Origin: Escherichia coli
GTDB taxonomy: Bacteria > Pseudomonadota > Gammaproteobacteria > Enterobacterales > Enterobacteriaceae
Assembly (NCBI RefSeq): GCF_044647545.1
Contig: NZ_CP172818.1
Reading direction: 5' to 3' (one strand)
Length of the DNA stretch: 64,000 nucleotides
In this document: positions 2,192-33,876 of the stretch, one piece after another
How the letters are laid out: each line of letters opens with the position of its first letter
Numbering within the stretch: the first letter of the stretch is position 1
Notes under the pieces: model-generated
Seen by the model: only the letters and a program-made list of their open reading frames with translations
Database searches by the model: none
What the model was told of the DNA's origin: nothing
Made by a program: the position numbers and the translations under genes

Positions 2192-2201
2192 GGATATAAA
2201 G

Positions 2202-5251: not shown

Positions 5252-6940
5252 TCAGTTCACATCACGACTCATTTTTTTCGCTCTCACCGGCATCCCATTT
5301 GCCACATAATATCCCGCCGTGCTCCTCGGCAACGCATCCTTCCCGCGAATCATATCCGCTATTTTCTCGCCAATCATAATGGTCGTGGCGTTCAAATTGC
5401 CGGTGATAATTTGCGGCATAATTGACGCATCCACCACGCGCAGGCCTTCCAGCCCGTGTACGCGGCCTTCGCCGTCAACCACTGCCATCTCGTCATAACC
5501 CATTTTGCAGGTACCGCACGGGTGGAAGGCGGTTTCGGCGTGGTTACGCACGAACTCATCGAGCTGCTCATCCGTCTGGCATTCGACACCGGGGCTGATT
5601 TCGCGGCCACGATACTGATCCAGCGCCGGTTGATGCATGATCTCCCGGGTGATGCGAATTGCGTCGCGGAACTCCTGCCAGTCCTGCTCGTGCGACATGT
5701 AGTTAAACAGAATCGCTGGATGCTGGTGCGGGGCGCGGGATTTAATCCGCACATGCCCACGGCTTGGCGAGCGCATCGATCCGACGTGGCACTGGAAGCC
5801 GTGCTCTTTCACTGCGTTCGAGCCGTTATAGTTAATCGCTACTGGCAGGAAATGGTACTGAATATTCGGCCACGCAAATTCCTCACGGCTGCGAATAAAT
5901 CCGCCTGCTTCAAAGTGGTTGCTGGCACCAATGCCGGTGCCGCCAAACAGCCACTCCGCACCGATTTTCGGCTGATTCCACCACTGCAGGGCAGGGTAGA
6001 GGGAAACCGGTTCTTTGCACTCATATTGCAGATACATCTCCAGGTGATCCTGAAGATTTTCGCCGACGCCAGGTAATTCATGCACCAGCGGAATATCAAA
6101 CTCCGCCAGCAGTTCAGCGTTGCCGACGCCGGAGCGTTGCAGGATCTGCGGTGAAGCAATCGCGCCTGCACATAACAGCACTTCTTTATTCGCCGCCGCG
6201 CGGGTCGGAATGGTGCTGTCGCCTTCCAGCCACTCGACGCCCACCGCGCGTTTGCCGTCAAAAATGATGTGATCGGTCATGGCGTGAGTACGAATAGTCA
6301 GGTTAGGGCGCGATTTGGCCTGATCGAGATAGCCACGCGCGGTGCTGGCGCGACGGCCATGCGGCGTGACGGTGCGATCCATCGGGCCAAAACCTTCTTG
6401 CTGATAGCCGTTGAGATCGTCCGTGCGCGGGTAGCCCGCCTGCACGCCCGCTTCAATCATCGCTTCAAACAGCGGATTGACGCCGGGTTTGGAGGTGGTG
6501 ACGCTCACCGGGCCATCACCGCCGTGGTAGTCGTTCTCGCCCACATCGCGAGTCTCGGCCTTGCGGTAGTAGGGCAGGCAGTCGAGATAACTCCAGTTCT
6601 CCAGACCAGGTTCTTGTGCCCAGTTATCGAGATCCAGCGCATTGCCACGGATGTAGCACATACCATTGATCAGCGATGAACCGCCCAGACCTTTGCCGCG
6701 TCCGCACTCCATGCGGCGGTTGTTCATAAACGGTTCGGGTTCCGTCTCATAGGCCCAGTTGTAGCGTTTGCCCTGTAACGGGAACGCCAGCGCGGCGGGC
6801 ATCTGGGTGCGGAAGTCAAAGCGATAGTCCGGGCCGCCTGCTTCAAGCAGCAGCACGGTTATGTTCGGATCTTCAGTCAGACGGGTAGCGAGGACGTTGC
6901 CGGCTGAGCCGGCACCAATAATGATGTAGTCAAATTGCAA
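5252..6940 (-). CDS. betA: Choline dehydrogenase (GMC oxidoreductase), TTG start 5 nt after AGGAGG
   Basis: ORF track 5252..6985; N-terminal FAD motif [11 protein letters not shown]; TTG at 6940 with strong SD. Confidence 0.9.
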
Positions 6941-6953
6941 ATAAACCTCCTGG

Positions 6954-8426
6954 TTAGAATATGGACTGGAATTTAGCCATCTCAACCTGGATGGACTTCA
7001 CCTGGGTGTAACTCTGGAGCGTCATCACGCCGTTCTCGCGACCAATGCCGGAGTGTTTGTAGCCGCCAACGGGCATCTCTGCCGGGGATTCGCCCCAGGT
7101 GTTGATCCAGCAAATACCCGCTTCCAGCTGATGAATGACGCGATGCGCGCGGTTCAGGTCCGCCGTCACGATACCCGCCGCCAGACCGTAGTCGGTATCG
7201 TTAGCGCGGCGAATGACTTCGTCTTCCGACTCGTAGGTCAGAATGGACATCACCGGCCCGAAAATCTCTTCGCGCACGATGGTCATTTCGTCGCGGCAAT
7301 CGGTGAACACGGTCGGTGCAACCCATGCGCCGTTATCGAAGCCATCGCCTTTCAGTACATCGCCGCCGCACAGTACGCGCGCGCCTTCCTCTTTGCCTTT
7401 GGCGATATAGCGCAGCACGTTATCGCGATGCGGGAAGCTGACCAGCGGGCCGAAGTTAGTTTGCGGATCGAAAACGTCGCCCGCGCGAATGCGCTCAACG
7501 CGCGCCAGAATCTTTTGTTCAAATGCGGCTTTGCATTTCGTCGGAACGAAGACGCGAGTGCCGTTGGTACACACCTGACCGGAGCTGAAGAAATTCGCCA
7601 TCATGGCGATATCGGCGGCGAGATCGAGATCCGCATCGTCAAAAACGATCAGCGGTGATTTACCGCCCAGCTCCATGGTCACTTCTTTCAGGGAAGAGGC
7701 CGCCGAGTTAGCCATCACTTTTTTGCCGCTGGCGACACCGCCGGTAAATGACACTTTGGCAATGCCCGGATGCTCGGTCAGATACTGCCCGGTTTCCGCA
7801 CCTACGCCCGGCAGCACGTTAAATACGCCGTCCGGCAGGCCCGCTTCGCTGTAAATGTCGGCCAGCTTTAACGCGGTAAGCGGGGTGACTTCGCTCGGTT
7901 TGAAAATCATCGCGTTGCCTGCCGCCAGCGCCGGTGCGGATTTCCACAAGGCAATCTGGATCGGGTAGTTCCATGCGCCAATCCCTGCCACTACGCCCAG
8001 CGGTTCGCGGCGGGTATAAACAAATGACGTCTCACGCAATGGGATCTGGCTGCCTTCCAGCGCCGGGATCAGCCCGGCGTAGTACTCCAGCACGTCCGCA
8101 CCGGTAACGATATCGACGGTTGATGTTTCCGAATACGCTTTTCCGGTGTCGAGGGTTTCCAGTTTTGCGAGTTCGTCATTGCGTTCACGCAGAATATCAA
8201 CGGCCCGACGCAGAATACGCGAGCGTTCCATAGCGGTCATCGCCGCCCAGATTTTTTGCCCCTGTTGGGCACTCTTCACGGCGCGATCGACATCCTCACG
8301 CCCGGCGGCCTGCACGGTCGCCAGCACGTTACCGTTGGCCGGGTTAATGGTCTCGAAGGTGCGACCGCTGGTGGCGGAGGTATAACCACCATGTATATAA
8401 AGCTGCTGTTCTGCCATTCGGGACAT
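6954..8426 (-). CDS. betB: Betaine aldehyde dehydrogenase
   Basis: ORF track 6954..8429, aldehyde dehydrogenase family sequence, 490 aa from second Met. Confidence 0.9.
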
Positions 8427-8439
8427 CACGTCTCCTCGG

Positions 8440-9027
8440 TTAATCGGTGGGTAAATGCTGAGTAATAAAGTGACGGGTCAGCGAGTGTGCGAGAGGTTTA
8501 TCCAGCGGTTTGCCGCTCAGTGCCGCGCGCAGCCATAATCCGTCAATCAGCGCGGCAAGGCCGTAGCCCGCTTCCTGTGCCTGGTGGCGCGGTAACTCGC
8601 GGTGAAATTCGCTCACCAGATTCGACAACAAGCGGCGGCTGCTCACCTGCTGCAAACGGTAAAGCATCGGCTGATGCATACTGCTGGCCCAAAACGCCAA
8701 CCAGGCTTTCATCGCAGCATTACTGACCTGCGTTTCATCGAAATTCCCGTCAACAATCGCCTGTAATCGCTGCTCTGGGCTACCATCCGTTAGCGCGTGT
8801 AATCGATTCAAAACCGCGTCACGCAGCTGACTGGTGATATCGCGCATGGTTGCTTCCAGCAGACCATTTTTGTCCCTGAAATAGTGGCTGATGATCCCCG
8901 TAGAAACGCCTGCACGGCGGGCGATCTGCGCGATCGTTGCATCGTGCATGCCCACTTCATTTATTGCTTCCAGCGTGGCGTCGATCAGTTGTCTGCGCCG
9001 GATCGACTGCATCCCCAATTTGGGCAT
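8440..9027 (-). CDS. betI: TetR-family repressor of the bet regulon
   Basis: ORF track 8440..9045; ATG at 9027 gives 195 aa; N-terminal HTH. Confidence 0.9.
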
Positions 9028-9071
9028 TTTCGCCACTCCATTCATCAGCGTTGTTTATCTATTAAAGCGGT

Positions 9072-9091
9072 TATTGATTGGACGTTCAATA
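9072..9091. promoter_or_regulatory. Inverted repeat TATTGA-N8-TCAATA in the divergent betI/betT promoter region; candidate BetI operator
   Basis: Palindrome read directly between divergent betI and betT starts. Confidence 0.4.
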
Positions 9092-9155
9092 TAAAATGTG
9101 TCTTAATTGTTACGAGTTTGATTTTAAATGGTAACAATAACAGTGGGGATACTGG

Positions 9156-11189
9156 ATGACAGACCTTTCACACAGCAGGGAAAAGGACAAAATCAATCCG
9201 GTGGTGTTTTACACTTCCGCCGGACTGATTTTGTTGTTTTCCCTGACAACGATCCTGTTTCGCGACTTCTCGGCCCTGTGGATTGGCCGCACGCTGGACT
9301 GGGTCTCTAAAACCTTCGGTTGGTACTATCTGCTGGCGGCAACGCTCTATATTGTCTTTGTGGTCTGTATCGCTTGTTCGCGTTTTGGTTCGGTGAAGCT
9401 CGGGCCAGAACAATCAAAACCGGAATTCAGTCTGCTGAGTTGGGCGGCGATGCTGTTTGCTGCCGGGATCGGTATCGACCTGATGTTCTTCTCCGTAGCC
9501 GAACCGGTCACGCAGTATATGCAGCCGCCGGAAGGCGCGGGTCAGACGATTGAGGCCGCGCGTCAGGCGATGGTCTGGACGCTGTTTCACTACGGCTTAA
9601 CCGGCTGGTCGATGTATGCGCTGATGGGCATGGCGCTCGGATACTTTAGCTATCGTTATAATTTGCCGCTCACCATCCGCTCAGCGCTGTACCCGATCTT
9701 CGGTAAACGGATTAACGGGCCGATAGGTCACTCAGTGGATATTGCAGCGGTGATCGGCACCATCTTCGGTATTGCCACTACGCTCGGTATTGGTGTGGTG
9801 CAGCTTAACTATGGCTTGAGCGTACTGTTTGATATTCCCGATTCAATGGCGGCGAAAGCGGCACTGATCGCCTTGTCGGTGATCATCGCAACGATCTCTG
9901 TCACCTCCGGTGTCGATAAGGGCATTCGCGTGTTATCGGAACTTAACGTTGCGCTGGCGCTGGGGTTGATCCTGTTTGTGCTGTTTATGGGCGACACCTC
10001 GTTCCTGCTTAATGCGCTGGTGCTGAACGTTGGCGACTATGTGAATCGCTTTATGGGCATGACGCTCAACAGTTTTGCCTTCGACCGTCCGGTTGAGTGG
10101 ATGAATAACTGGACGCTCTTCTTCTGGGCATGGTGGGTGGCATGGTCGCCGTTTGTCGGCTTGTTCCTGGCGCGTATCTCGCGTGGGCGTACCATTCGCC
10201 AGTTCGTGCTGGGCACGTTGATTATTCCGTTTACCTTCACGCTGTTATGGCTCTCGGTATTCGGCAATAGCGCGCTGTATGAAATCATCCACGGCGGCGC
10301 GGCATTTGCCGAGGAAGCGATGGTCCATCCGGAGCGCGGCTTCTACAGCCTGCTGGCGCAGTATCCGGCGTTTACCTTTAGCGCCTCCGTCGCCACCATT
10401 ACTGGCCTGCTGTTTTATGTGACCTCGGCGGACTCCGGGGCGCTGGTGCTGGGGAATTTCACCTCGCAGCTTAAAGATATCAACAGCGACGCCCCCGGCT
10501 GGCTGCGCGTCTTCTGGTCGGTGGCGATTGGCCTGCTGACGCTAGGCATGCTGATGACCAACGGGATATCCGCGCTGCAAAACACCACGGTGATTATGGG
10601 CCTGCCGTTCAGCTTTGTGATCTTCTTCGTGATGGCGGGGTTGTATAAATCTCTGAAGGTAGAAGATTACCGCCGTGAAAGTGCCAACCGCGATACCGCG
10701 CCGCGACCGCTGGGGCTTCAGGATCGCCTGAGCTGGAAAAAACGTCTCTCGCGCCTGATGAATTATCCGGGCACGCGTTACACTAAACAGATGATGGAGA
10801 CGGTCTGTTATCCGGCAATGGAAGAAGTGGCGCAGGAACTGCGGTTGCGCGGCGCGTACGTGGAGCTAAAAAACCTGCCGCCGGAAGAGGGACAACAGTT
10901 GGGGCATCTGGATTTGTTGGTGCATATGGGCGAAGAGCAAAACTTTGTCTATCAGATTTGGCCGCAGCAATATTCGGTGCCGGGCTTTACCTACCGCGCA
11001 CGTAGCGGGAAATCGACCTACTACCGGCTGGAAACCTTCCTGTTAGAAGGCAGCCAGGGCAACGACCTGATGGACTACAGCAAAGAGCAGGTGATCACCG
11101 ATATTCTTGACCAGTACGAGCGGCATCTTAACTTTATCCATCTCCATCGTGAAGCGCCGGGCCATAGCGTGATGTTCCCGGACGCGTGA
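9156..11189 (+). CDS. betT: Choline transporter (BCCT family)
   Basis: ORF track 9156..11189, 677 aa, multi-TM BCCT-like sequence. Confidence 0.9.
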   Translation: MTDLSHSREKDKINPVVFYTSAGLILLFSLTTILFRDFSALWIGRTLDWVSKTFGWYYLLAATLYIVFVVCIACSRFGSVKLGPEQSKPEFSLLSWAAMLFAAGIGIDLMFFSVAEPVTQYMQPPEGAGQTIEAARQAMVWTLFHYGLTGWSMYALMGMALGYFSYRYNLPLTIRSALYPIFGKRINGPIGHSVDIAAVIGTIFGIATTLGIGVVQLNYGLSVLFDIPDSMAAKAALIALSVIIATISVTSGVDKGIRVLSELNVALALGLILFVLFMGDTSFLLNALVLNVGDYVNRFMGMTLNSFAFDRPVEWMNNWTLFFWAWWVAWSPFVGLFLARISRGRTIRQFVLGTLIIPFTFTLLWLSVFGNSALYEIIHGGAAFAEEAMVHPERGFYSLLAQYPAFTFSASVATITGLLFYVTSADSGALVLGNFTSQLKDINSDAPGWLRVFWSVAIGLLTLGMLMTNGISALQNTTVIMGLPFSFVIFFVMAGLYKSLKVEDYRRESANRDTAPRPLGLQDRLSWKKRLSRLMNYPGTRYTKQMMETVCYPAMEEVAQELRLRGAYVELKNLPPEEGQQLGHLDLLVHMGEEQNFVYQIWPQQYSVPGFTYRARSGKSTYYRLETFLLEGSQGNDLMDYSKEQVITDILDQYERHLNFIHLHREAPGHSVMFPDA

Positions 11190-11203
11190 TTGTTTTTGCA
11201 TAA

Positions 11204-11240
11204 AACCGCGCCATGTCTGCATATGGCGCGGTTTCTCTTA
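11204..11240 (+). terminator. Rho-independent terminator downstream of betT
   Basis: GC-rich stem AACCGCGCCAT / ATGGCGCGGTT with 8-nt loop followed by TCTCTT, 15 nt after betT stop. Confidence 0.6.
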
Positions 11241-12064
11241 CCTCTTGATACGTTATATCTGTACAGTTAAGCCCTTAGTATCGATTGATGATTGCCAGGC
11301 AACAGATAATAAAAAAGAAAAGAACTATTGAAGCCCAAAACCTACGTTTGGACTGTTGTGAATGTTCAATAAGCTTAGTCTTATTTAATGTAAATATTGG
11401 TGCTAATTTGAAATGACGCTTTATTCATGGGGAACGCGTAGCGCAAATCAACTAAAATCAATGTAACCGTTTGTTGTTTAAGGTTTAATTGTCTGTGTCT
11501 GATATTTTATTGATTGTTTTAAATATTGTTTTTATTGTCATTGTTATAATGTTGGCTATCTATTGCTGAATGGATTCAGTCTTAAAAAGCAGGTTGTTAA
11601 GAGATAGGCATAGAGTAATGACGTGTATGCATAACCAACATCTTTACTCATTATGTCATTGAATGTTGACGCTATGTGTTTATGAGGTTGAGGTATTTTC
11701 AGTTGATCTGGATTGTTAAATTCATATAATGCGCCTTTACTCATGAATGGGCGTCAATACGTAGTGGGAAATTATAAATATCGAAATAGTCCAACTACTT
11801 CTTTATTACCAAAAATGAGTATCTGAATTTTAATATTGCATTCTTGCGTGATTATCTCCTGAGTTTGACTTGTGATTACCTTTTTAAGGTATTTAGCGTA
11901 ACTGTTTTTGAGCGAGCATCAGAGGTAAAGATAATCTTCTTGATAGTGATGTGGGATGTTATACGTATGGCATCGCTAATGTTTATGGTTACCCCTTATG
12001 TGTGCTCAGGAATCCACAGGTAATCACTCATACTGAACAGCGATAAAAGATAAAAGGTGTGTTC

Positions 12065-13153
12065 ATGAATTCATGTGATTTTCGTGTTTTTCTGCAAGAG
12101 TTCGGTACAACGGTTCATTTGTCATTGCCTGGTAGCGTATCCGAGAAAGAACGACTGCTACTCAAGCTGCTGATGCAGGGAATGTCTGTAACAGAAATAT
12201 CACAGTACAGAAATCGCAGTGCAAAGACCATTTCACATCAAAAGAAACAGCTCTTTGAGAAACTGGGGATTCAGAGCGATATTACTTTCTGGCGGGATAT
12301 TTTCTTTCAGTACAATCCGGAGATCATATCCGCCACGGGTAATAATAGTCACAAATATATTAATGATAATCACTATCACCATATCGTCACGCCTGAAGCC
12401 ATCAGTCTGGCGTTGGAAAACCATGAATTTAAACCGTGGATCCAACCGGTTTTCTGCGCGCAGACTGGGGTACTGACGGGCTGTGAGGTGCTTGTTCGCT
12501 GGGAACATCCGCAAACGGGAATTATCCCACCGGATCAGTTTATTCCTCTGGCGGAGTCATCTGGTCTTATCGTCATAATGACTCGCCAGCTGATGAAACA
12601 GACTGCGGATATTCTGATGCCAGTAAAACATTTGCTGCCGGATAATTTCCATATTGGTATCAACGTCTCGGCGGGCTGTTTTTTGGCTGCGGGATTTGAA
12701 AAAGAGTGTCTGAACCTGGTTAAGAAATTAGGTAACGATAAAATCAAACTGGTTCTCGAGTTAACGGAACGTAACCCTATTCCGGTAACGCCAGAAGCCA
12801 GAGCGATATTTGACAGCCTTCATCAGCACAACATTACCTTTGCGCTGGATGACTTTGGTACGGGTTATGCAACCTATCGTTACTTGCAGGCGTTCCCGGT
12901 CGATTTTATTAAGATCGATAAGTCATTTGTGCAAATGGCGAGCGTGGACGAAATATCCGGTCATATTGTGGACAATATTGTCGAACTGGCGCGTAAGCCT
13001 GGTCTGAGTATCGTGGCGGAAGGGGTAGAAACCCAGGAGCAGGCGGATTTAATGATCGGCAAAGGCGTTCACTTTTTGCAGGGCTATTTGTACTCTCCGC
13101 CAGTACCGGGTAATAAATTTATCTCTGAATGGGTAATGAAAGCCGGTGGTTGA
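12065..13153 (+). CDS. pdeL: c-di-GMP phosphodiesterase with LuxR-type HTH and EAL domain
   Basis: ORF track 12059..13153; ATG at 12065; EAL motif (ELTE) present; long AT-rich upstream region. Confidence 0.85.
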   Translation: MNSCDFRVFLQEFGTTVHLSLPGSVSEKERLLLKLLMQGMSVTEISQYRNRSAKTISHQKKQLFEKLGIQSDITFWRDIFFQYNPEIISATGNNSHKYINDNHYHHIVTPEAISLALENHEFKPWIQPVFCAQTGVLTGCEVLVRWEHPQTGIIPPDQFIPLAESSGLIVIMTRQLMKQTADILMPVKHLLPDNFHIGINVSAGCFLAAGFEKECLNLVKKLGNDKIKLVLELTERNPIPVTPEARAIFDSLHQHNITFALDDFGTGYATYRYLQAFPVDFIKIDKSFVQMASVDEISGHIVDNIVELARKPGLSIVAEGVETQEQADLMIGKGVHFLQGYLYSPPVPGNKFISEWVMKAGG

Positions 13154-13194
13154 TGTAAACCGCTATTCACAGCGCATCGGGAGGTTGGCAGCGA

Positions 13195-14127
13195 TTAATT
13201 CTCCCGATGCAGTAAATCCTGATAGATCCCCGTTAATATGCCATTTGGCGCAAATTGTTTTTTAATCCACTGCGTCACCTGACCGGTGGCAGAGTGCTGG
13301 GTCGCCAGTAACATGCGTGAATCCTGGCGCGGATTATGGATTTGTCGGGTAACCAGCAGGGATTGCGCCATCGCCTCACGGACCATGTAATCCGGCAAAA
13401 AACCAATTCCTTCGCCTAAAATCTGGCACTGACATTTGGTGTTGAAATCTGGCACCAGAATCGACTCCTGCCCATGCAGCAACCAGCCCACTTTTTTATT
13501 AATCGTATGCGCGGTGTCTTCCACCATGATATTAGGGTAGAGACGCAGCTGGCTTTCGGCGATGGGTTCCGGCACAAAGGCTAACGGGTGATCCGGGGCG
13601 ATAGCAAAAGCCCAGCGAATCGCGCCAATCTCCGTGTAATCAATGCCGCCGCCGTCCAGCAGTGTGTCGGGCGCGCCGATAGCAATATTCGCCTGATTAT
13701 TAATAATCGCATCCCAGACGCCGTTATACACTTCGGTGGTGACGGTAATCTGGCAGGTAGGAAACTGCTTTTTCAGCACCTGTAATAAGCGTGCGGTGTG
13801 TTTGGGCGTATAAAGCAGCTGATTAATACAAATGCGCACACGCGCTTCTATGCCCTGCGAAATAGTATCGATACTGCGTTTAATGGCATGAAAATCATTC
13901 AGCAGGTCGGTAGCTTTGCGGAAAAAATAACGCCCGGACTCCGTTAACTCAATGCTGCGGGTACTGCGAGTGAACAGCACCACATCCAGCCCCGTCTCCA
14001 TACGTTTAATGGTGTAGCTAATGGCGGAAGTGGTTAAACCCAACTCTTCTGCGGCTTTACTGAAGCTGCCAAAACGCGCAGCGGTAGTAAATGCCAACAG
14101 ATTCTCTTCGGTAAAAATTGAGTTCAT
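13195..14127 (-). CDS. yahB: LysR-family transcriptional regulator
   Basis: ORF track 13195..14127, 310 aa, N-terminal LysR HTH. Confidence 0.85.
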   Translation of the reverse strand: MNSIFTEENLLAFTTAARFGSFSKAAEELGLTTSAISYTIKRMETGLDVVLFTRSTRSIELTESGRYFFRKATDLLNDFHAIKRSIDTISQGIEARVRICINQLLYTPKHTARLLQVLKKQFPTCQITVTTEVYNGVWDAIINNQANIAIGAPDTLLDGGGIDYTEIGAIRWAFAIAPDHPLAFVPEPIAESQLRLYPNIMVEDTAHTINKKVGWLLHGQESILVPDFNTKCQCQILGEGIGFLPDYMVREAMAQSLLVTRQIHNPRQDSRMLLATQHSATGQVTQWIKKQFAPNGILTGIYQDLLHREN

Positions 14128-14218
14128 TGACCCGCTCCCGCCATTTTCGATTCTGAATTTCTCCAGCCATGACTGTAGAGGTATCCATTAAAGATGGATA
14201 ATCATTTTTGAATAACTT

Positions 14219-14716
14219 TTAATACCCGTCGCTTTTGGTCGTCGCTTCGCTTAATTTTTGTCCGCCGTATTCTGAAATTATCCCCACGCAGTTACCCGCC
14301 AGAAAACCCAGTAATGTCACCGTCCAGTTCATCCCGCTGGCAAAAAATAGCGTCATGCCGAGAAAGCCCCCGGGAATAAAAGACAGTAACCAGAAACGTC
14401 CTTGCCAGACCACCACCGCCGAGAAGGGTACAGTCATAATCACGCTCGCCCAGAACGTGGACAATCCACTCACCGAGGCCAGCCAACCGGCAGCCAGCGC
14501 GGCGAAAAACGCCCACACCATCCCGGAATAATTAACCGCCAGGCTTCTGATAAACCCCGATTTACCGCCGCCTGCGGCATAAAAACTGCAAAAGGCGACG
14601 AAGCCAATGGTTCCTAATAATTCCCATCCCTGAGAGAGCCCGACATGTGAAGACACTAACTGCCAAAGCCCTGCACAAATACCGACGGTGACACCCGTTG
14701 CCGTGAGTCCGTTCAT
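14219..14716 (-). CDS. yahC: Small inner membrane protein
   Basis: ORF track 14219..14716, 165 aa, hydrophobic. Confidence 0.75.
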   Translation of the reverse strand: MNGLTATGVTVGICAGLWQLVSSHVGLSQGWELLGTIGFVAFCSFYAAGGGKSGFIRSLAVNYSGMVWAFFAALAAGWLASVSGLSTFWASVIMTVPFSAVVVWQGRFWLLSFIPGGFLGMTLFFASGMNWTVTLLGFLAGNCVGIISEYGGQKLSEATTKSDGY

Positions 14717-14973
14717 CTTGTTCCCCTCTGGTTAGACATGGACGAAAGCTACTCTTACATGTGCAGACTATAGAGAAATAAAACCTGATTGAGTGAAAGG
14801 GTATCGGGTCAAAGAAACAAATATTGCACTACCGCACACTGCGAAAAGATTGTTGAACATCATTCAACAAAAAGGCGAAATACGGCGAATTAAATTTAAG
14901 CGGGTTCTTTTATCAGATTATCGTTGCTATTCGCAATTCATCGAAAACAGCCACAAAAACCAGGGGAATGTGA

Positions 14974-15575
14974 ATGAGTATAAAAAATCTACCTGCCGAC
15001 TATTTATTGGCTGCACAACAGGGTGATATCGATAAAGAAAAACCTGCCTTGCGCTGGGTGTCGATATTAATACCTGCGATCGTCAGGGGAAAACGGCAAT
15101 TACGCTGGCAAGTTTATATCAGCAATATGCTTGCGTTCAGGCATTAATTGATGCCGGAGCGGATATTAATAAGCAAGATCATACTGTTTAAATCCTTTTT
15201 TAATTAGCTGTCTGAACGATGATTTAACGCTACTACGAATTATTTTACCGGCTAACCCGATCTTAATTGCGTAACCCGTTTTGGCGGTGTCGGCCTGACG
15301 CCTGCCTGTGAAAAAGGCCATTTAAGTATTGTAAAAGAGCTTTTGGCGCATACGGAAATTAACGTTAACCAGACCAACCATGTAGGCTGGACGCCGCTAC
15401 TGGAAGCGATTGTGCTTAATGATGGCGGTATTAAACAGCAGGCGATTGTCCAGTATTGCTGGAACATGGTGCCAGTCCGCATCTGACGGATAAATATGGC
15501 AAAACGCCGCTGGAACTGGCGCGGGAACGGGGCTTTGAAGAGATTGCGCAGTTACTGATTGCCGCAGGCGCATAA
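14974..15575 (+). pseudogene. yahD: Ankyrin-repeat protein gene with about four 1-bp deletions
   Basis: ATG at 14974 reads MSIKNLPADYLLAAQQGDIDK then stops; ankyrin-repeat peptide segments recur in shifted frames up to TAA at 15573-15575; span is 602 bp, not a multiple of 3. Confidence 0.65.
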
Positions 15576-15585
15576 CCCGGGAGGC

Positions 15586-16465
15586 TTGCTATCAACACAC
15601 CAGAAAGACGGTGTGTGTGGGCCGCAACTGCGGATGCGGGATTTTCTGGCGCAGCGGGGGCAAGGACAGGTTGAACAGGTCTTTGCCAGAGCGGTAAATA
15701 TCGCACTCCCGGCCGCCAGCAGTTGCTGACGCTGCTTTGTGAAGAGTACGACAATGCGCCAAACAGTTGTCGGTTGGCATCACTCACTTTGATGTCTTTC
15801 GGCATGGTGATAAGGTTCAGTTTGACGATCAAGGCATTACGGTTGGTCAACATCTTCATATAGAGATACGAGTCGTTGTCGGCGTTGGCTGTCCCCAACC
15901 TTGCAAATGACCGCTGTGAATTTTCACCTTATCGCCTGGCTACAGTGGCACGACATTATTCATCAGCACCTGGGGGAAAATGAAACCCTGTTTAATTATC
16001 GCGGCGATAATCCGTTTTATCAGGCGTTAGGTAAAGAATTACATATTAAACGACGGGCAGTTATTCAGGCCGTAAACGATAAACAAAATATCGCCTCAGC
16101 GGTCGCCAGTATGATGGGGTTAGGGATTGGCCTTACGCCATCAGCCGACGATTATTTAACAGGTCTGGCGCTTATTTTATTTATTCCCGGCATCCGGCGG
16201 AAAAATACAAAGAGGAATTTTATCTCGGTCTGCAACGCGGCAAAAATAATACCACATTATTAAGTGCCATAACGCTGGAAGCCGCATTACAACAACGCTG
16301 CCGGGAAAATATTCATCGTTTTATTCACAACATTATTTATGACATCCCTGGGAAAAACCCCGAACTCAGGCAATAGAAAAAATTAAACATATTGGCTCCA
16401 GTTCCGGCTGCGACATGCTGTATGGCATGGCCGATGGTTGTGCGCTGAGCCAAACCTACGGAGGG
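15586..16465 (+). pseudogene. yahE: yahE-like gene, frame fragmented; boundaries approximate
   Basis: Only a 120-aa fragment (track ORF 15901..16263) survives between yahD and yahF; position matches yahE. Confidence 0.35.
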
Positions 16466-16469
16466 AATT

Positions 16470-18009
16470 ATGTCAGTTAAAATAGTCATTAAACCGAATA
16501 CCTATTTTGATTCTGTCTCGCTGATGTCTATCTCCACGCGTGCAAATAAACTCGACGGCGTCGAGCAGGCATTTGTGGCGATGGCGACCGAAATGAATAA
16601 AGGCGTGCTGAAGAATTTAGGACTGCTGACGCCGGAGCTGGAGCAGGCGAAAAACGGCGACCTGATGATTGTCATCAATGGTAAATCGGGTGCGGACAAC
16701 GAGCAGTTGCTGGTGGAGATTGAAGAACTGTTCAACACCAAAGCGCAAAGCGGCTCGCACGAGGCGCGTTACGCCACTATTGGCAGCGCCAAAAAGCATA
16801 TCCCGGAAAGTAACCTGGCGGTGATTTCGGTCAACGGTCTGTTTGCCGCTCGCGAAGCGCGTCAGGCGCTGCAAAACGATCTCAACGTGATGCTGTTTTC
16901 CGATAACGTCTCAGTTGAAGATGAACTGGCGCTCAAGCAACTGGCCCACGAAAAAGGGCTGCTGATGATGGTTAGACTGTGGCACGGCGATTATCAACGG
17001 CGCGGCGCTCTGTTTTGGTAACGCCGTGCGTCGCGGCAACATCGGTATTGTTGGCGCATCCGGCACCGGCAGTCAGGAGTTGAGCGTCCGCATTACTTAA
17101 TTTGGCGGCGGCGTTTCGCAACTGATCGGCACCGGCGGGCCAGCCTGAGCGAGAAATTGGCGGCCTGATGATGCTCGACGCCATCGGGATGCTGGAAAAC
17201 GATCCGCAAACTGAAATCATTGCGCTTATCTCCAAACCGCCTGCGCCTGCGGTGGCCCGCAAAGTGCTGGAACGTGCGCGCGCCTGCCGCAAGCCGGTGG
17301 TCGTCTGCTTCCTCGATCGTGGCGAAACGCCAGTGGATGAGCAGGGGCTACAGTTTGCCCGCGGCACCAAGAGGCAGCGCTAAAAGCGGTGATGCTCTCC
17401 GGCGTGAAACAGGAAAATCTCGACCTGCATACGCTTAACCAGCCGTTGATTGCGGATGTGCGTGCGCGTCTGCAACCGCAGCAGAAATACATTCGTGGCC
17501 TGTTCTGCGGCGGCACGCTGTGCGACGAAACCATGTTCGCGGTGATGGAAAAACATGGCGATGTCTACAGCAACATTCAGCCCGATCCGGAATTCCGCCT
17601 GAAAGATATCAACCGCAGCATCAAACACACCTTCCTCGACTTTGGCGATGACGACTTCACCAACGGCAAGCCGCACCCGATGATTGACCCCACCAACCGC
17701 ATCAGTCGCTTGATCGAAGAGGCGCGCGATCCAGAAGTGGCGGTGATCATGGATTTTGTGCTCGGATTTGGATCGCATGAAGATCCGGTCGGCTCCACCA
17801 TCGAGACGATCAAAGAAGCGAAAGCGATCGCCGCTGCCGAAGGACGCGAGTTGATCATTCTCGCCTATGTGCTGGGTACCGATCTTGATACGCCATCGTT
17901 AGAACAACAAAGCCAGATGCTGCTTGATGCCGGAGTGATTCTGGCGAGCAGCAGCACCAATACCGGATTGCTGGCGCGTGAATTTATCTGCAAAGGGGAG
18001 GAAGCCTGA
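16470..18009 (+). pseudogene. yahF: Succinyl-CoA synthetase alpha-like (CoA-binding) protein gene, split into at least 3 frames
   Basis: Track ORFs 16470..17021, 17168..17383 and 17389..18009 lie in frames 0, 2 and 1 and read as consecutive parts of one protein. Confidence 0.65.
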
Positions 18010-19427
18010 TGAGCCAGTCACTGTTTAGCCAACCATTGAACGTTATTAACGTCGGCATCGCCATGTTTAGCGATGACCTGAAAAAGCAGCATGTAGAAGT
18101 GACTCAACTCGACGGGACGCCGCCGGGGCAGGGCAATATGCAGGTGGTGCAGGCGCTGGATAACATTGCCGATCTTGCCGCTGGCGGACAAAATCGCCGC
18201 CGCTAACCAGCAGGCGCTGGAGCGTATTATCCAGTCGCATCCGGTGCTGATTGGTTTTGATCAGGCGATTAACGTGGTGCCGGGCATGACGGCGAAAACC
18301 ATTCTTCACGCCGGGCCGCCGATCACCTGGGAAAAAATGTGCGGCGCGATGAAAGGCGCGGTCACCGGAGCGCTGGTGTTCGAAGGACTGGCGAAGATCT
18401 CGACGAGGCGGCTGAACTGGCGGCTTCCGGGGAGATCACCTTCTCGCCGTGTCACGAGCACGACTGTGGGATCGATGGCGGGTGTTACCTCGGCCTCGAT
18501 GTTTATGCACATCGTAAAAAACAAAACCTACGGCAACATCGCTTATACCAACATGAGCGAGCAGATGGCGAAGATTTTGCGTATGGGCGCTAACGACCAG
18601 AGCGTGATTGACCGCCTGAACTGGATGCGTGATGTGCAGGGACCAATACTGCGCGACGCGATGAAAATTATCGGCGAAATCGATCTGCGCTTAATGCTGG
18701 CGCAGGCGCTGCGGATAGGGCGATGAGCGCCATAACCGCAATAACGCCGGGACGACACTGCTGATTCAGGCGCTGACGCCGGGGATTATTCAGGCGGGTT
18801 ATTCCGTCGAGCAACAGCGCGAAGTGTTTGAGTTTGTCGCCAGCAGCGACTACTTCTCCGGCCCGACGTGGATGGCGATGTGTAAAGCGGCGATGGATGC
18901 GGCGCATGGCATCGAATACAGCACCGCGGTCACCACCCATGGCGCGTAACGGCGTCGAGTTCGGCATGCGGGTCAGCGGCCTGCGGGGTAATGGTTCAAC
19001 CGGCCCGGCGCAGCAGGTGATCGGCCCGATGTTTGCCGGTTATAAGCCGGAAGATTCGGGGCTGGATATCGGCGACAGCGCCATCACCGAAACCTACGGT
19101 ATTGGCGGATTTGCTATGGCGACCGCGCCCGCTATCGTCGCGCTGGTGGGCGGCACGGTGGAAGAAGCTATTGATTTCTCCCGTCAGATGCGCGAAATCA
19201 CCCTCGGTGAAAACCCCAACGTCACCATTCCGCTGCTCGGTTTTATGGGCGTGCCGTCGGCAATCGACATCACCCGCGTGGGTAGCAGCGGCATTCTGCC
19301 GGTGATCAACACCGCCATCGCCCATAAAGATGCGGGCGTCGGCATGATTGGCGCGGGCATTGTGCATCCACCTTTTGCCTGCTTCGAGAAAGCCATTCTT
19401 GGCTGGTGCGAACGTTACGGCGTCTGA
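18009..19427 (+). pseudogene. yahG: yahG-like (DUF1116) gene with an internal +1 frame segment
   Basis: Track ORFs 18009..18206 (frame 0), 18166..18726 (frame 1) and 18828..19427 (frame 0); total span 1419 bp, a multiple of 3. Confidence 0.6.
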
Positions 19428-19440
19428 CCTACATGTTCAT

Positions 19441-19799
19441 GCCGGATGCGGCGTGAACGCCTTATCCGGCCTACGAATGGCGCAAGAATCTGTAGGCCTG
19501 ATAAGCGTAGCGCATCAGGCATTTGTCACCATTGCCGGATGCGGCGTGAACGCCTTATCCGGCCTACGAATGGCGCAAGAATCTGTAGGCCTGATAAGCG
19601 TAGCGCATCAGGCATTTGCCACCACTGCCGGATGCGGCGTGGACGCCTTATCCGGCCTACGAGTGGCGCGAGAATCTGTAGGCCTGATAAGCGTAGCGCA
19701 TCAGGCATTTGTCACCATTGCCGGATGCGGCGTGAACGCCTTATCCGGCCTACGAGTGGCGCGAGAATTGTAGGCCTGATAAGCGTAGCGCATCAGGCA
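19441..19799. repeat. BIME/REP array, about 3.9 tandem units of 93 bp, each with two REP palindromes
   Basis: Units begin at 19441, 19534, 19627 and 19720 with near-identical sequence GCCGGATGCGGCGTGAACGCCTTATCCGGCCTAC...GTAGGCCTGATAAGCGTAGCGCATCAGGC. Confidence 0.85.
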
Positions 19800-19848
19800 G
19801 TCTGGCGTTGGTCATAACCCCATCACCCTCTGTAGCGGACATAACAAC

Positions 19849-20803
19849 ATGAAAGAGCTTGTGGTCGTTGCCAATGGTGGCAACAGCATTATAGAAAGAT
19901 AACGCCAGCCAGTCGATTGAGCATCAGGCGGAGGCGGTGAAAGCCGTGGCCGATACGGTGCTGGAAATGCTGGCTTCCGATTACGACGTGCTGACCCACG
20001 GTAACGGGCCGCAGGTCGGCTAAGATACGCCGTGCGGAGATTGCCCACGAGCGCGAAGGGCTGCCCTTAACGCCGCTGGCGAACTGTGTGGCAGATACGC
20101 AGGGCGGCATCGGCTATCTGATCCAACAGGCGCTGAATAACCGGCTGGCGCGTCACGGCGAGAAAAAAGCCGTCACCGTGGTAACTCAGGTGGAAGTGGA
20201 TAAAAACGATCCAGGTTTTGCCCATCCACCAAGCCCATTGGTGCATTCTTCAGTGAAAGCCAGCGTGACAAACTACAAAAGGCAAACCCTGACTGGTGTT
20301 TTGTTGAAGATGCCGGACGGGGCTATCGCCGCGTGGTCGCCTCGCCGGAACCGAAACGTATTGTCGGCACCACCATCGCGCGCTGGAGAGATCCAACAAG
20401 GTTTTGTCGTAATTGGCGCGGGCGGCGGTGGAATTCCGGTAGTGCGTACTGAAGCGGGGGATTACCAGAGCGTGGACGCGGTTATTGACAAAGATCTCTC
20501 TACCGCGCTGCTTGTCGCCGTGAAATTCACGCCGACATTCTGGTGATCACCACCGGCGTCGAAAAAGTCTGTATCCACTTTGGTAAACCGCAGCAGCAGG
20601 CGCTGGATCGGGTGGATATTGCCACCATGACTCGCTATATGCAGGAAGGGCATTTTCCGCCCGGCGGCGTGTTGCCAAAAATCATCGCCAGCCTGACGTT
20701 CCTGGAGCAGGGCGGCAAAGAAGTGATTATCACCACGCCGGAATGCCTGCCTGCGGCGCTGCGCGGTGAAACGGGCACCCATATTCTAAACGTAAGGACG
20801 TAG
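19849..20803 (+). pseudogene. yahI: Carbamate kinase-like gene, frameshifted
   Basis: ATG at 19849 reads MKELVVVANGGNSIIER then stops; downstream fragments (track ORFs 20088..20546 and 20543..20803) carry carbamate kinase-like sequence in other frames. Confidence 0.6.
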
Positions 20804-20804
20804 G

Positions 20805-22214
20805 ATGAAAGAAAGCAATAGCCGCCGTGAATTTCTGAGCCAGAGCGGTAAGATGGTCACCGCCGCCGCGCTGTTCGGTACCTCTTTGCCGCTCGCCCAT
20901 GCGGCGGTAGCTGGCACCCTAAACTGCGAAGCGAACAACACCATGAAAATCACTGACCCGCATTACTATCTCGATAACATGCTGCTGGAAACCGGTTTTG
21001 ACTACGAAAACGGTGTGGCGGTGCAGACCCGCACGGCGCGCCAGACCGTGGAGATTCAGGACGGCAAAATTGTCGCCCTGCGCGAGAACAAGCAGCATCC
21101 GGACGCCACGCTGCCGCACTATGACGCTGGCGGTAAGTTGATGCTACCCACCACTCGCGACATGCATATTCATCTCGACAAAACCTTCTACGGCGGGCCG
21201 TGGCGCTCGCTCAATAGTCCGGCAGGCACCACTATCCAGGACATGATCAAGCTTGAGCAGAAAATGCTGCCGGATTACAACCGTATACGCAGGAGCGGGC
21301 GGAAAAACTGATCGATCTATTGCAGTCGAAAGGCACCACCATTGCCCGCAGCCACTGCAATATCGAACCGGTTTGCCGGCCTAAAAAATCTGCAAAATTT
21401 GCAGGCGGTGCTGGCGCGGCGTCGGGCCAGCTCGAGTGTGAAATCGTCGCCTTCCCGCAGCACGGTTTGCTGCTGTCGAGATCGGAACCCTTAATGCGCG
21501 AAGCGATGCAGGCGGGTGCGCATTACGTCGGCGGGCTGGACCCGACCAGTGTCGATGGCGCGATGGAAAGATCCCTCGACACCATGTTTCAGATTGCGCT
21601 GGACTACGACAAAGGTGTCGATATTCACCTGCACGAAACCACTCCATCAGGGCGTGGCAGCCATCAATTATATGGTTGAAACGGTAGAGAAAACGCCGCA
21701 ACTGAAAGGTAAGCTGACCATCAGCCACGCCTTTGCGCTGGCTACGCTCAACGAACAACAGGTCGATGCGCTCGGCGAATCGGATGGCGGCGCAGCAAAT
21801 TTCTATCGCCCTGACGGTGCCGATTGGCACGCTGCATATGCCGCTCAAACAGTTGCACGACAAAGGCGTAAAAGTGATCACTGGCACTGACAGCGTTATC
21901 GACCACTGGTCGCCTTATAGTATCGGCGACATGCTGGAAAAAGCCAATCTCTACGCGCAGCTCTATATTCGTCCTAACGAACAGAACCTCTCCCGTTCGC
22001 TGTTTCTAGCCACTGGCGATATATTGCCGCAATGAAAAAGGCGAGCGTGTATGGCCAAAAGCGCAGGATGATGCCAGCTTTGTGCTGGTGGACGCCTCCT
22101 GTTCCGCCGAGGCGGTGGCGCGTATCTCGCCGAGAACCGCAACGTTCCATAAAGGGCAACTGGTGTGGGGGAGTGTGGCAGGTTGATGCGCATTTGAAAC
22201 GCCTGCAACGGTGA
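20805..22214 (+). pseudogene. yahJ: Amidohydrolase/deaminase-family gene, split into at least 4 frames
   Basis: Track ORFs 20805..21311, 21320..21679, 21516..21890, 21733..22035 and 22032..22214 read as consecutive pieces; metal-binding HxH motif in the first piece. Confidence 0.55.
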
Positions 22215-22563
22215 ATTGTAAAGAGATTTAAGCCCCAGGGAGTGGGGCAATCTGAATATGAGTGTGTCGGCAGAAATGGACATTATCTTTGAGGAATATG
22301 CCCTTATTGACGTTGTGTAGATAACTATTTGTCTACGTGAAAAGATCATCAGTTTTGCCGATTTTAGTCTTTTACAGATAGCAAATATCACACTTACAGG
22401 CGCTCGCCTTATGGGGAACGTTGCTGCTCTGTTTCATTCAGGCTCGCGGCATGTTGGGGCTGGATCGGGTGGTTTAAATATTGGCTATATTCAATGGACG
22501 CGTTTTGCCGCGATGACATATCAGGCGTTGCCAAATACACATAGCTAATCAGGAGTAAACACA

Positions 22564-23613: not shown

Positions 23614-23851
23614 AAAAATTAATAAATACCCTGTGGTTTAACATATTAACTTCGTTCTCCACTTAACTTTTTAGTTAAGGAGAGCGAAATAATATCAAAG
23701 TAGCAGTAAAACCTATAACGTAAATTTAAATTGTTAAATTAACGCCCTCCAGTACACAATACTTCACACGTTAGTTATGAGCGATTTCTGATAGTGCCTG
23801 GTTTAATCAGAGCTTTATTATCTGCGACGTTTATTTTTATTTAGAGATCGC

Positions 23852-24662
23852 GATGATATCATTAAAAGCTCCGCACAATAATTTGATGCCATATACGCAA
23901 CAAAGCATACTTAATACGGTTAAAAACAATCAGTTACCAGAGGATATCAAAAGCGCCTGGTTTCCTGTGTCGATATATTCAAGGTTTTGATTAAACAATA
24001 TTATGATTATCCTTATGATTGTCGTGATGATTTAGTCGATGACGACAAACTCATTCATCTCATGGCTGCCGTACGAGACTGTGAGTGGTCAGACGATAAC
24101 GCACTCACCATAAATGTGCAGTTTAATGATTTCCCTGGATTTTATGACTGGATGGATTACCCTGATCACCCGGTTAGGGTTACTTCATACTTGAAAATCA
24201 AAAAGGGACAGTTTGGGTATATGACCAGGATGATGCGTTTCTTGATATTAAAGCAAACGTGCAGGCTGGACGCTTTACCGGGCTTAAGAAATTAGTGCAG
24301 TTTATCGATTCAGTGCGAACAGATTGCAAATGTATTCTTCTTGAATACCATATGCCTTTGCTGAGAATTTTCCCTAAAGGGAAAGAGTGTATGCATGTGG
24401 AAAAATGGCTTCGCGAAATGTCGTCTATTCCGGAGACAGACGCGCCCATTAAGCAGGCGCTTGCGCATGGATTATTATTACACTTAAAAAATATCTACCC
24501 TGTTTTCCTGAATCACTGGTGATGTTATTGCTCTCTGTTCTGGACGTAAAAACATACAGAGATGATGCGCGATTAAATGAATGGATATCTAATAGAGTGC
24601 AGGAATTAGGTGACAGATATTATCCTGTAAATAAGCACGTTAAAATCCGCTACACTCTTTAG
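23852..24662 (+). pseudogene. yahL: yahL-like gene, frameshifted; boundaries approximate
   Basis: ATG at 23852 stops after about 45 codons; track ORFs 23987..24295 and 24259..24522 continue in other frames. Confidence 0.4.
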
Positions 24663-25176
24663 TTCAGAAAGGGTTCCACCTGCAAGTTGTTATTCCACCT
24701 GAGAGTGAATCGCAATGCAGGTAATCATTTCATCTGTATATCTGTATGCCAACTGGCATTCCATCTCTTTTTTCGCCGATATTTTGTGTGATCGGCGACA
24801 CTTCGCTTAAAAAAGCACCAGTAGTGGTTTCGCAGCCATGCGGTGTATAAAAAATGATCTCATGCAGATGTTTTGTGAATGTGTTGGTTGACATTCATAT
24901 GAAAAAAATCATAATTCCATCATGTTTGTGTGGGGTCTTTTCTGTATCTTACGCATCGCACTCAAGCCTGACAGAAAATATGCTGTAAGGCTCATATAAA
25001 AAACGCCATTAGCTCATCAGGAAGAGCAGACGACAACCAGGATTGTTGTATGGTACGGGGTTCGAGGCCTCGATGGCGGTCCAACTTTCAAAACTCTTCT
25101 GAATCAGATCCCCTTATTATCATCCCTGCAAAGTGGAACATTGCCATTGTTTGGCTATTCAGGATGGGGCAGACCA

Positions 25177-25356
25177 ATGAAAAAAGCCCACACAGGGGAG
25201 AGTGGGCTGAAATGGGAAGCTAAAGACTCAAGTAAACTTATCGGAAATAAGGACCACGCATCAGGGGCTATCATCGCCGATGGCCGTGATTCGGCAAATC
25301 AGGTTGATTACGTAGAGAGTAAATTATCTGCTCACCGCTGCGTCACCCCTTCGTAA
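25177..25356 (+). CDS. Small hydrophilic ORF (59 aa from ATG) in the yahM position; identity uncertain
   Basis: Part of track ORF 25141..25356; promoter-like TTGACA-N17-ATAATT at 24888-24916 lies upstream. Confidence 0.2.
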   Translation: MKKAHTGESGLKWEAKDSSKLIGNKDHASGAIIADGRDSANQVDYVESKLSAHRCVTPS

Positions 25357-28347: not shown

Positions 28348-29304
28348 ATGTCTCTACACTCTCCAGGTAAAGCGTTTCGCGCTGCACTGACTAAAGAAAA
28401 TCCATTGCAGATTGTTGGCACCATCAACGCTAATCATGCGCTGTTGGCGCAGCGTGCCGGATATCAGGCAATTTATCTTTCTGGCGGTGGCGTGGCGGCA
28501 GGTTCGCTGGGGCTGCCCGATCTCGGTATTTCTACCCTTGATGATGTGCTGACCGACATTCGCCGTATCACCGACGTTTGTTCGCTGCCGCTGCTGGTGG
28601 ATGCGGATATCGGTTTTGGTTCTTCGGCCTTTAACGTGGCGCGCACCGTGAAATCGATGATTAAAGCCGGTGCGGCAGGATTGCATATTGAAGATCAGGT
28701 TGGTGCGAAACGCTGCGGTCATCGTCCGAATAAAGCGATCGTCTCGAAAGAAGAGATGGTGGATCGGATCCGCGCGGCGGTGGATGCGAAAACCGATCCT
28801 GATTTTGTGATCATGGCGCGCACCGATGCTCTGGCGGTAGAGGGGCTGGATGCGGCGATCGAGCGTGCGCAGGCCTATGTTGAAGCGGGTGCCGAGATGT
28901 TGTTCCCGGAGGCGATTACCGAACTCGCCATGTACCGCCAGTTTGCCGATGCGGTGCAGGTGCCGATCCTCGCCAATATTACCGAATTTGGCGCAACACC
29001 GCTGTTTACTACCGATGAATTACGCAGTGCCCATGTTGCAATGGCGCTGTACCCGCTTTCAGCGTTTCGCGCCATGAACCGCGCCGCCGAACATGTCTAC
29101 AACGTCCTGCGTCAGGAAGGCACGCAGAAAAGCGTCATCGACACCATGCAAACCCGCAACGAGCTGTACGAAAGCATCAATTACTACCAGTACGAAGAGA
29201 AGCTCGACGACCTGTTTGCCCGTAGCCAGGCGAACCCCCCCCCCCCCCCCCACAACGAAAAATATCTCGACCCTACAAAAAAAAAAATGACGAGGACAAT
29301 ATGA
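28348..29304 (+). CDS. prpB: 2-methylisocitrate lyase; the C-terminus runs through a C17 tract, giving an aberrant tail
   Basis: ORF track 28348..29304, 318 aa; sequence is lyase-like up to FARSQ, then [24 protein letters not shown] encoded by the homopolymer region. Confidence 0.7.
29235..29251. repeat. Homopolymer tract C17, followed by A11 at 29277-29287
   Basis: Counted directly in the sequence. Confidence 0.9.
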
Positions 29305-30468
29305 GCGACACAACGATCCTGCAAAACAGTACCCATGTCATTAAACCGAAAAAATCGGTAGCACTTTCTGGCGTTCCGGCGGGCAATACGGCGCTCTGCA
29401 CCGTGGGTAAAAGTGGCAATGACTTGCATTACCGTGGTTACGATATTCTTGATCTGGCGGAACATTGCGAATTTGAAGAAGTGGCGCATCTGCTGATCCA
29501 CGGCAAACTGCCGACCCGTGACGAACTCGCCGCCTACAAAACGAAACTGAAAGCCCTGCGCGGTTTACCGGCTAACGTGCGTACCGTGCTGGAAGCCTTA
29601 CCGGCGGCGTCGCACCCGATGGATGTTATGCGCACCGGCGTTTCCGCGCTCGGCTGCACGCTGCCAGAAAAAGAGGGGCATACCGTCTCTGGCGCGCGGG
29701 ATATTGCCGACAAACTGCTGGCGTCACTTAGCTCGATTCTTCTCTACTGGTATCACTACAGCCACAACGGCGAACGCATTCAGCCGGAAACCGATGACGA
29801 CTCCATCGGCGGTCACTTCCTGCATCTGCTGCATGGCGAAAAGCCGTCGCAAAGCTGGGAAAAGGCGATGGAGATCCGCTGGTGCTGTACGCCGAACACG
29901 AGTTTAACGCCTCCACCTTTACCAGCCGGGTGATCCGGCGGGCACCGGCTCTGATATGTATTCCGCGATTATTGGCGCGATTGGTGCACTGCGCGGCTGA
30001 AGCACGGCGGGGCGAATGAAGTGTCGCTGGAGATCCAGCAACGCGACGAAACGCCGGACGAAGCCGAAGCCGATATCCGCAAGCGGGTGGAAAACAAAGA
30101 AGTGGTCATTGGTTTTGGTCATCCGGTTTATACCATCGCCGACCCGCGTCATCAGGTGATCAAACGTGTGGCGAAGCAGCTCTCGCAGAAGGCGGCTCGC
30201 TGAAGATGTACAACATCGCCGATCGCCTGGAAACGGTGATGTGGGAGAGCAAAAGATGTTCCCCAATCTCGACTGGTTCTCCGCTGTTTCCTACAACATC
30301 AGGGGCTTTCCCACCGAGACGTTCACCCCACTGTTTGTTATCGCCCGCGTCACCGGCTGGGCGGCGCACATTATCGAACAACGTCAGGACAACAAAATTA
30401 TCCGTCCTTCCGCCAATTATGTTGGACCGGAAGCACGCCCGTTTGTCGCGCTGGATAAGCGCCAGTAA
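29301..30468 (+). pseudogene. prpC: 2-methylcitrate synthase gene, split into at least 3 frames
   Basis: Track ORFs 29301..29933, 30021..30203 and 30166..30468 read as consecutive citrate synthase-family segments; span 1168 bp. Confidence 0.7.
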
Positions 30469-30501
30469 ACCTCTACGAATAACAATAAGGAAACGTACCC
30501 A

Positions 30502-31952: not shown

Positions 31953-31990
31953 GTAAACGGCGGTAAGGCGTAAGTCAACAGGAGACCATT

Positions 31991-33871: not shown

Positions 33872-33876
33872 GTTAT

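Follow-up and report, generated by a model that had tools for sequence, protein, structure and literature searches.

The stretch of Escherichia coli DNA considered here (contig NZ_CP172818.1 of assembly GCF_044647545.1; 64,000 nucleotides, referred to in full as the window) corresponds to the rclR–ykg–bet–yah–prp–cod–cyn–lac–mhp–frm–yai–tau region of the chromosome, and within it six genes of the yahD–yahJ block (yahD, yahE, yahF, yahG, yahI and yahJ) are each interrupted by several small insertions and deletions (indels). Judged from sequence comparisons, these frameshifts are very probably consensus errors lying in four poorly supported patches of the assembly, rather than signs of biological gene decay. 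Low-quality consensus was also the reading preferred in the original prediction, and it is supported by, among other things, the uniqueness of the damage, its patchiness and the indifference of the private changes to selection.

Counts of indels in the block are based on gene-by-gene global alignment of the window to E. coli K-12 J53. The four events in yahD (14974–15575) are all 1-bp deletions, located at 15037, 15183, 15253 and 15453, which matches the four or so single-base losses that had been pinpointed in this gene beforehand. Seven events are present in yahE (15615–16480), six of them frameshifting, and five in yahF/fdrA (16470–18009), of which four shift the frame. All seven events in yahG (18009–19427) and all six in yahJ (20805–22186) are frameshifting, as are 10 of the 11 in yahI (19849–20795). 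When the indels are removed in silico, the resulting translations are 100 (yahD), 99.0 (yahE), 99.2 (yahF), 98.3 (yahG), 95.6 (yahI) and 96.3% (yahJ) identical to the K-12 proteins. The expectation that the six genes would prove to be near-identical proteins broken by multiple small indels is borne out by these figures (4–11 events per gene; 95.6–100% identity after repair), as is the expected integrity of yahB, yahC and yahK, which have no indels relative to K-12 and the last of which matches the K-12 DNA sequence at 100%. All six damaged genes are intact in NZ_AP022161.1, the closest relative of the sequences flanking the damaged region, and in the remaining complete genomes whose annotation was examined. 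The lesion load of the block is far beyond chance.

The block was initially taken to extend from 14974 to 22214. Although this interval is indeed damaged, the damage is not confined to it. In alignments to K-12 J53, six further genes are frameshifted in the same manner, with between two and nine frameshifting indels each: yahL (3), yahM (2), prpC (5), prpD (3), prpE (4) and codB (9, all in its 5′ 750 bp). In addition, prpB (28348–29304) has lost its stop codon, producing a 318-amino-acid open reading frame (ORF) that runs across the start of prpC. All of the broken yah, prp and cod genes reside in a single tract of 26.4 kb (14.9–41.3 kb), which stretches from yahD to the 3′ end of lacY. By contrast, every base agrees with K-12 in yahH, yahK, yahN, yahO, prpR, codA, cynR, cynT, cynS, cynX and lacA.

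The partition of the tract into damaged and undamaged sequence is sharp. A change is termed private when the window base is absent from six panel genomes, these being K-12 J53, KE58, TKEC21-59, 33-6, BS-04 and a reference genome of sequence type 648 (ST648). Four noisy zones, together 13,989 bp long, contain 109 private substitutions and 75 indel events (1.3%), whereas four clean zones totaling 12,380 bp contain no private event and only two differences from K-12. A uniform rate of change would give so clean a set, none as opposed to 184 events, at P ~3e-38, and patches of damage with abrupt edges (184 events in 13,989 bp versus 0 in 12,380 bp) are what consensus errors of uneven origin should produce. 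The edges of the zones ignore gene boundaries, with damage extending into spacers and missing from the last 500 bp of codB and the first 630 bp of prpB. Both edges of the noisy zone containing yahI and yahJ, as well as the start of the noisy zone containing the prp genes, coincide with points at which the window switches from the alleles of one E. coli lineage to those of another.

The private changes are also blind to coding constraints, as consensus errors would be. Private substitutions are distributed over codon positions 1, 2 and 3 in the ratio 39/29/36 (P=0.47 versus uniform), and they comprise 28 synonymous, 72 non-synonymous and 4 stop-generating changes, so that 73% alter the protein. 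Transitions and transversions (ts:tv) stand at 63:46 (1.4), compared with 2.8 for natural variation. In the same genes, substitutions shared with other lineages are concentrated at the third codon position (84%) and include 130 synonymous versus 22 non-synonymous changes; since the shared substitutions are mostly synonymous, these genes have been under ordinary purifying selection in their natural history, and the private layer is noise on which no selection has acted.

The indels comprise 55 deletions and 20 insertions of 1–5 bp, giving an indel-to-substitution ratio of 75:109 (~0.7). Events are bundled, with 24–41% residing within 5 nt of another event against an expectation of 3–8%, and 41 of the 109 private substitutions are located within 10 nt of an indel. 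The lesions had been described as falling mostly in short runs, which holds for yahD but not overall: in 45% of the 40 one-base deletions the base lost was a non-repeated one (background 55%), and 10% occurred in runs of at least four (chi-square P=0.11). No concentration of indels in homopolymer runs is apparent, the run distribution not being significantly different from background, and no association of events with Dam or Dcm motifs is found in the noisy zones. The term homopolymer-type, by which the errors had been qualified, is therefore not supported, given the weak run-length enrichment (P=0.11) and the bundling of 1–5 bp indels with adjacent substitutions.

Similar conclusions about privacy can be drawn from wider searches. 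The best match to the noisy zones among 5,426 complete E. coli genomes, a collection to which Shigella genomes do not belong, is 97.6–97.9% identical, whereas 100% matches exist for both clean zones and flanks. Of the truncated or extended ORFs in the noisy zones, five were looked up as proteins, and each occurs on exactly one contig (NCBI) among ~15 billion proteins, a set in which no Logan or ENA assembly record of the five products occurs; the contig carrying them has no protein accessions. A 45-mer placed across one indel cluster has 0 matches in GTDB representative genomes and 0 in JGI metagenomes, a negative result that is weak when taken alone. As expected of consensus errors, the damage is thus private to a single assembly.

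In order along the window, the damaged tract begins with noisy zone A1 (14933–18997, plus strand), which encompasses yahD, yahE, yahF/fdrA and most of yahG on a K-12-like background and carries 25 private substitutions, 12 inserted bases and 16 gap sites. Downstream of A1 is clean zone P1 (18998–19873, plus strand), made up of the 3′ end of yahG and the yahH array described below, with one substitution relative to K-12 and none that is private. Noisy zone A2 (19874–22220, plus strand) contains yahI and yahJ on alleles of the BS-04 (L006) lineage; its private changes amount to 27 substitutions, 12 inserted bases and 11 gap sites. It is bounded by clean zone P2 (22221–23654, plus strand), which contains intact yahK and has no difference from K-12, and this is followed by noisy zone B (23655–25261, plus strand), in which both yahL and yahM are frameshifted and indels also occur in the spacers. 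Clean zone P3 (25262–28976) comprises yahN, yahO, prpR and the 5′ part of prpB, again with one substitution relative to K-12 and none that is private. Noisy zone C (28977–34946, plus strand), which includes the 3′ end of prpB, prpC, prpD, prpE and the 5′ 750 bp of codB, contains 51 private substitutions and derives in part from a third lineage. The last clean zone, P4 (34947–41301), contains the 3′ end of codB, codA, cynR, cynTSX, lacA and the 3′ end of lacY, and displays no differences from K-12 J53.

Several repetitive or variable spacers lie within the tract. The predicted ORF designated yahH (19440–19799) is in fact a tandem array of 3.9 copies of a 93-bp unit of the repetitive extragenic palindromic (REP) or bacterial interspersed mosaic element (BIME) type, identical to its K-12 counterpart; the array is absent from the ST648 reference, which has a short yahG–yahI spacer instead. 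The spacer between codA and cynR (36729–37064) contains a direct duplication of ~200 bp with REP sequences and is identical to that of K-12 J53, and the corresponding spacer in KE58 is 136 bp long and lacks the duplication. The prpB–prpC spacer of the window is of the short REP-less type (~60 bp), as opposed to the 440-bp type found in K-12.

The tract differs in ancestry from the sequences on either side of it. The left flank (1–14879; rclR′ to yahC) and the right flank (41578–64000; the 5′ part of lacY, lacZ, lacI, mhp, frm, yai and tau) show 0 substitutions relative to NZ_AP022161.1 and many other genomes of the ST648 clone, including CP008697.1 (“strain ST648”). Between ~14.9 and 41.3 kb, there are 16–63 substitutions per kb relative to this clone, and the alleles are of the K-12/phylogroup-A type instead. 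The left switch from ST648-type to K-12/phylogroup-A-type alleles takes place in the yahC–yahD spacer (14880–14977), where private changes begin at 14933; the last allele before that point to be specific to ST648, relative to all five other panel genomes, is at 14543. The return to ST648-type alleles takes place within lacY (41302–41577). Zone A1 is K-12-like at 108 of ~121 diagnostic sites and contains short runs of ST648-type alleles (15426–15509, 15835 and 17127). The yahI–yahJ segment (19948–22217) has the alleles of strain BS-04 (L006), not those of K-12, and prpC–prpE has a third allele set, so that the order of lineages along the window reads ST648, K-12-like, BS-04-like, K-12-like, third lineage, K-12-like and ST648. 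The allele of clean zone P4 is present at 100% identity in many phylogroup-A isolates. No ST648 genome in the E. coli collection carries the 26.4-kb tract, and the exact right junction is absent from the complete E. coli genomes, where the best match is 99.7%.

Whether this lineage switch reflects a true recombination tract or a chimera created in assembly is, on the sequence comparisons, about an even question. A contiguous block of alien alleles with sharp edges, in which ST648 sequence ends at 14879 and resumes at 41578, is the configuration that homologous recombination would leave, the donor alleles are common in nature, and the short ST648-type runs in zone A1 resemble the mosaics produced by mismatch repair. 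The right junction, however, has no exact match in the complete genomes of independent isolates. A chimeric assembly would account for the uniqueness of the right junction, for the shifts in quality at lineage switch points and for the presence of at least three donor lineages within 26 kb; in addition, the source contig is 4,499,902 bp long, which is 0.55–0.8 Mb shorter than ST648 chromosomes (5.05–5.3 Mb). A simple mixture of two strains, one ST648 and one K-12-like, would not suffice, given the alleles of further lineages in zone A2 and part of zone C. An origin of the tract in a K-12 laboratory strain was also considered and set aside, as many natural isolates of phylogroup A have the clean-zone allele at 100% identity. 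Contigs that encode the LacY product proved to be ordinary contig-end fragments of other strains and not sister genomes.

In four ST648 genomes (WP5-S18-ESBL-08, S1-IND-02-A, MINF_9A and NZ_CM188076.1), the insertion sequence IS1 resides in lacY at a 9-bp site, 41363–41372 in window coordinates; the reference closest to the window is among the carriers of this insertion. The lacY gene of the window is uninterrupted and contains no IS1, and its 276-bp interval of lineage switching includes this site. The coincidence is suggestive, in that a contig break at a repeat and selection for repair of lacY would both be compatible with it, but it is given little weight. As an explanation of the right junction it was rejected: only four ST648 genomes have the element, and many ST648 genomes without IS1 match the flank equally well.

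Damage in the flanks is of the same style as that in the noisy zones, but sparse. A patch of REP/BIME sequence at 56204–56300 is scrambled relative to the ST648 reference, with ~55 extra REP-like bases followed by the loss of 16 bases, mostly G or C, within ~40 bp. Another REP element, at 54210, has a 5-bp deletion (GCGGC) that appears private to the window, the listed ST648 hits aligning with a single gap at this position. Two isolated deletion-insertions, each with a net loss of two bases, are located at 4933 (CTCTGTTATAC to CTCGTATAC), where the change is the only difference of the left flank from the ST648 clone, and at 60053 (ACGCATAATT to ACGAAATT). Their effect is to shift the frame of a ykgH-like gene and of an acetyltransferase gene adjacent to yaiP, in surroundings that have 0 substitutions relative to the ST648 clone.

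The most economical mechanism for these features would be a contig assembled from data that were uneven in quality or that came from more than one strain, such as error-prone, low-depth long reads with incomplete short-read polishing or a mixed or contaminated sample; the platform and pipeline here are ones that we infer. Well-supported pieces of such a contig would be identical to common database alleles, and poorly supported pieces would have kept ~1.3% random errors in the form of 1–5 bp indels, with deletions outnumbering insertions, and clustered substitutions. Polishing would have succeeded only where accurate data were adequate. The coincidence of noisy-zone edges with lineage switch points is to be expected if separately sourced pieces were joined. 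Fragmentation of genes by indels has been documented both for long-read assemblies and for Nanopore metagenome-assembled genomes (MAGs) (PMC12007338, PMC8103633).

Some features sit less comfortably with consensus error. The weak homopolymer bias and the lack of a link to Dam or Dcm motifs are not what 454, Ion Torrent or polished Nanopore data classically show. With flanks that are essentially free of errors, the pipeline must have delivered very uneven quality. Also, an excess of deletions such as that observed here (55 versus 20) is reportedly seen in real bacterial pseudogenes (Mira, Ochman and Moran 2001).

Among the alternatives, decay of genes under relaxed selection would require that this strain, or the donor of the tract, could do without the yah, prp and codB genes. 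In favor of decay are the accessory catabolic or transport roles of the damaged genes, the excess of deletions over insertions (55 versus 20) and the unselected look of the private substitutions; nevertheless, we regard it as very unlikely. At the private rate of 0.78% per site, ~22 synonymous changes would be expected in the intact coding sequence (10.3 kb) that alternates with the damaged genes, and 0 private ones are present (P ~1e-7). Likewise, more than 60 synonymous changes would be expected in the flanks, which have 0 substitutions in 37 kb relative to contemporary ST648 isolates. Decay thus lacks the proportional neutral divergence that it should leave nearby, and it also lacks lesions common to relatives, since those of the window are shared with no complete genome and no other assembly. 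The noisy zones, moreover, cross gene boundaries and hit spacers. Natural bacterial pseudogenes are very far from the indel-to-substitution ratio of ~0.7 seen in the noisy zones, where 4–11 indels per gene accompany less than 1% private substitution. A mutator, in which a genome-wide defect in mismatch repair leads to frameshifts by slippage, is hardly conceivable. Some deletions do fall in runs of 2–5 bases, but the 37 kb of flanks contain 0 substitutions, the run-length distribution does not differ significantly from background (P=0.11), multi-base indels and deletion-insertions are common, and there is no excess of transitions (ts:tv 1.4 versus 2.8), so that neither the genome-wide transition excess nor the slippage in runs that a mutator should cause is in evidence. 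Relaxed selection and a mutator history, both of which the original prediction had kept as alternatives, are therefore largely excluded by the interleaved genes and 37 kb of flanks without private substitutions, the absence of codon-position bias and the ratio of ~0.7.

Two further alternatives would place the origin of the changes in the tract itself. Localized hypermutation, in which sub-tracts were copied in an error-prone manner, for instance by repair synthesis accompanying the recombination of diverged DNA as a real 26-kb import entered an ST648 strain, is consistent with the confinement of damage to a tract with recombinant-like allele switches, with the clustered and complex nature of the events and with ST648-type runs in zone A1 that resemble mismatch-repair mosaics. 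It is nonetheless highly improbable, as the flanks have similar damage in REP elements and at two isolated positions, and the clean zones of the same import are untouched. We know of no bacterial process that gives ~1.3% errors, 40% of them indels, over kilobases, and known mutagenesis associated with double-strand breaks is orders of magnitude weaker than this explanation requires. In its fullest form, a real and recent import into ST648, perhaps repairing a lacY::IS1 allele, would have had four sub-tracts resynthesized with extremely low fidelity and many indels, in a process linked to recombination between diverged DNAs, and 12 genes inactivated at once with no effect on the segments in between, a scenario that is barely credible. 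Conceivably, the patches could instead have been acquired from divergent homologs, either through gene conversion with allF/G/H/K or from an Escherichia or Shigella lineage outside the collection. Other lineages did contribute part of the tract (zone A2 being BS-04-like and zone C containing the third), and the searched collection is one without Shigella. However, imported differences would be mainly synonymous and in frame, as opposed to private changes that are 73% protein-altering and accompanied by frameshifts; zone A1 is K-12-like at 108 of ~121 diagnostic sites, and so is not a divergent import; and no genome or paralog with the private clusters of variants was found in the complete E. 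coli genomes, the GTDB representative genomes or the JGI metagenomes. The chance that this accounts for the damage is minute.

Comparisons with known systems point in the same direction. As with errors in long-read or hybrid assemblies and in Nanopore MAGs, small indels split conserved genes, the lesions are private to the assembly, repair restores the proteins and REP/BIME sequences are hit. Unlike such errors, which are genome-wide, those of the window are concentrated ~100-fold in four patches, and they show a weak homopolymer bias, no link to methylation motifs, bundled substitutions and an association with a foreign-lineage tract. The abrupt lineage switches, the change in quality exactly at some of them and the unique right junction are shared with strain-chimeric contigs from mixed cultures or metagenomes, although a real homologous-recombination tract would give the same allele pattern. 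Inter-phylogroup recombination tracts resemble the window in its 26.4-kb replacement, its sharp edges in diagnostic alleles and its phylogroup-A donor alleles, but no other ST648 carries this tract, and recombination alone makes no private indels. Finally, frameshifts in adjacent accessory operons and an excess of deletions over insertions are reminiscent of the pseudogenes of host-restricted E. coli and Shigella. Natural pseudogenes of that kind, however, have one or a few lesions per gene or an insertion sequence, are shared within a clade and are accompanied by background synonymous divergence, none of which applies here.

At face value, the window would suggest that an ST648 strain has lost the yahD–J carbamate-kinase/amidohydrolase cluster, propionate catabolism by prpCDE and cytosine uptake by codB. 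A literal reading would raise pseudogene counts artificially and imply a recombination event that perhaps never took place. Without recourse to reads, error is separable from decay here through the comparison of private with shared substitutions, the intact genes interleaved with the broken ones and flanks identical to those of the clone. Were the indels real, they would represent localized hypermutation at ~1.3%, which would be remarkable. It is quite likely, however, that the breaks in yahD–yahJ have no biological reality, and that they matter mainly for data hygiene.

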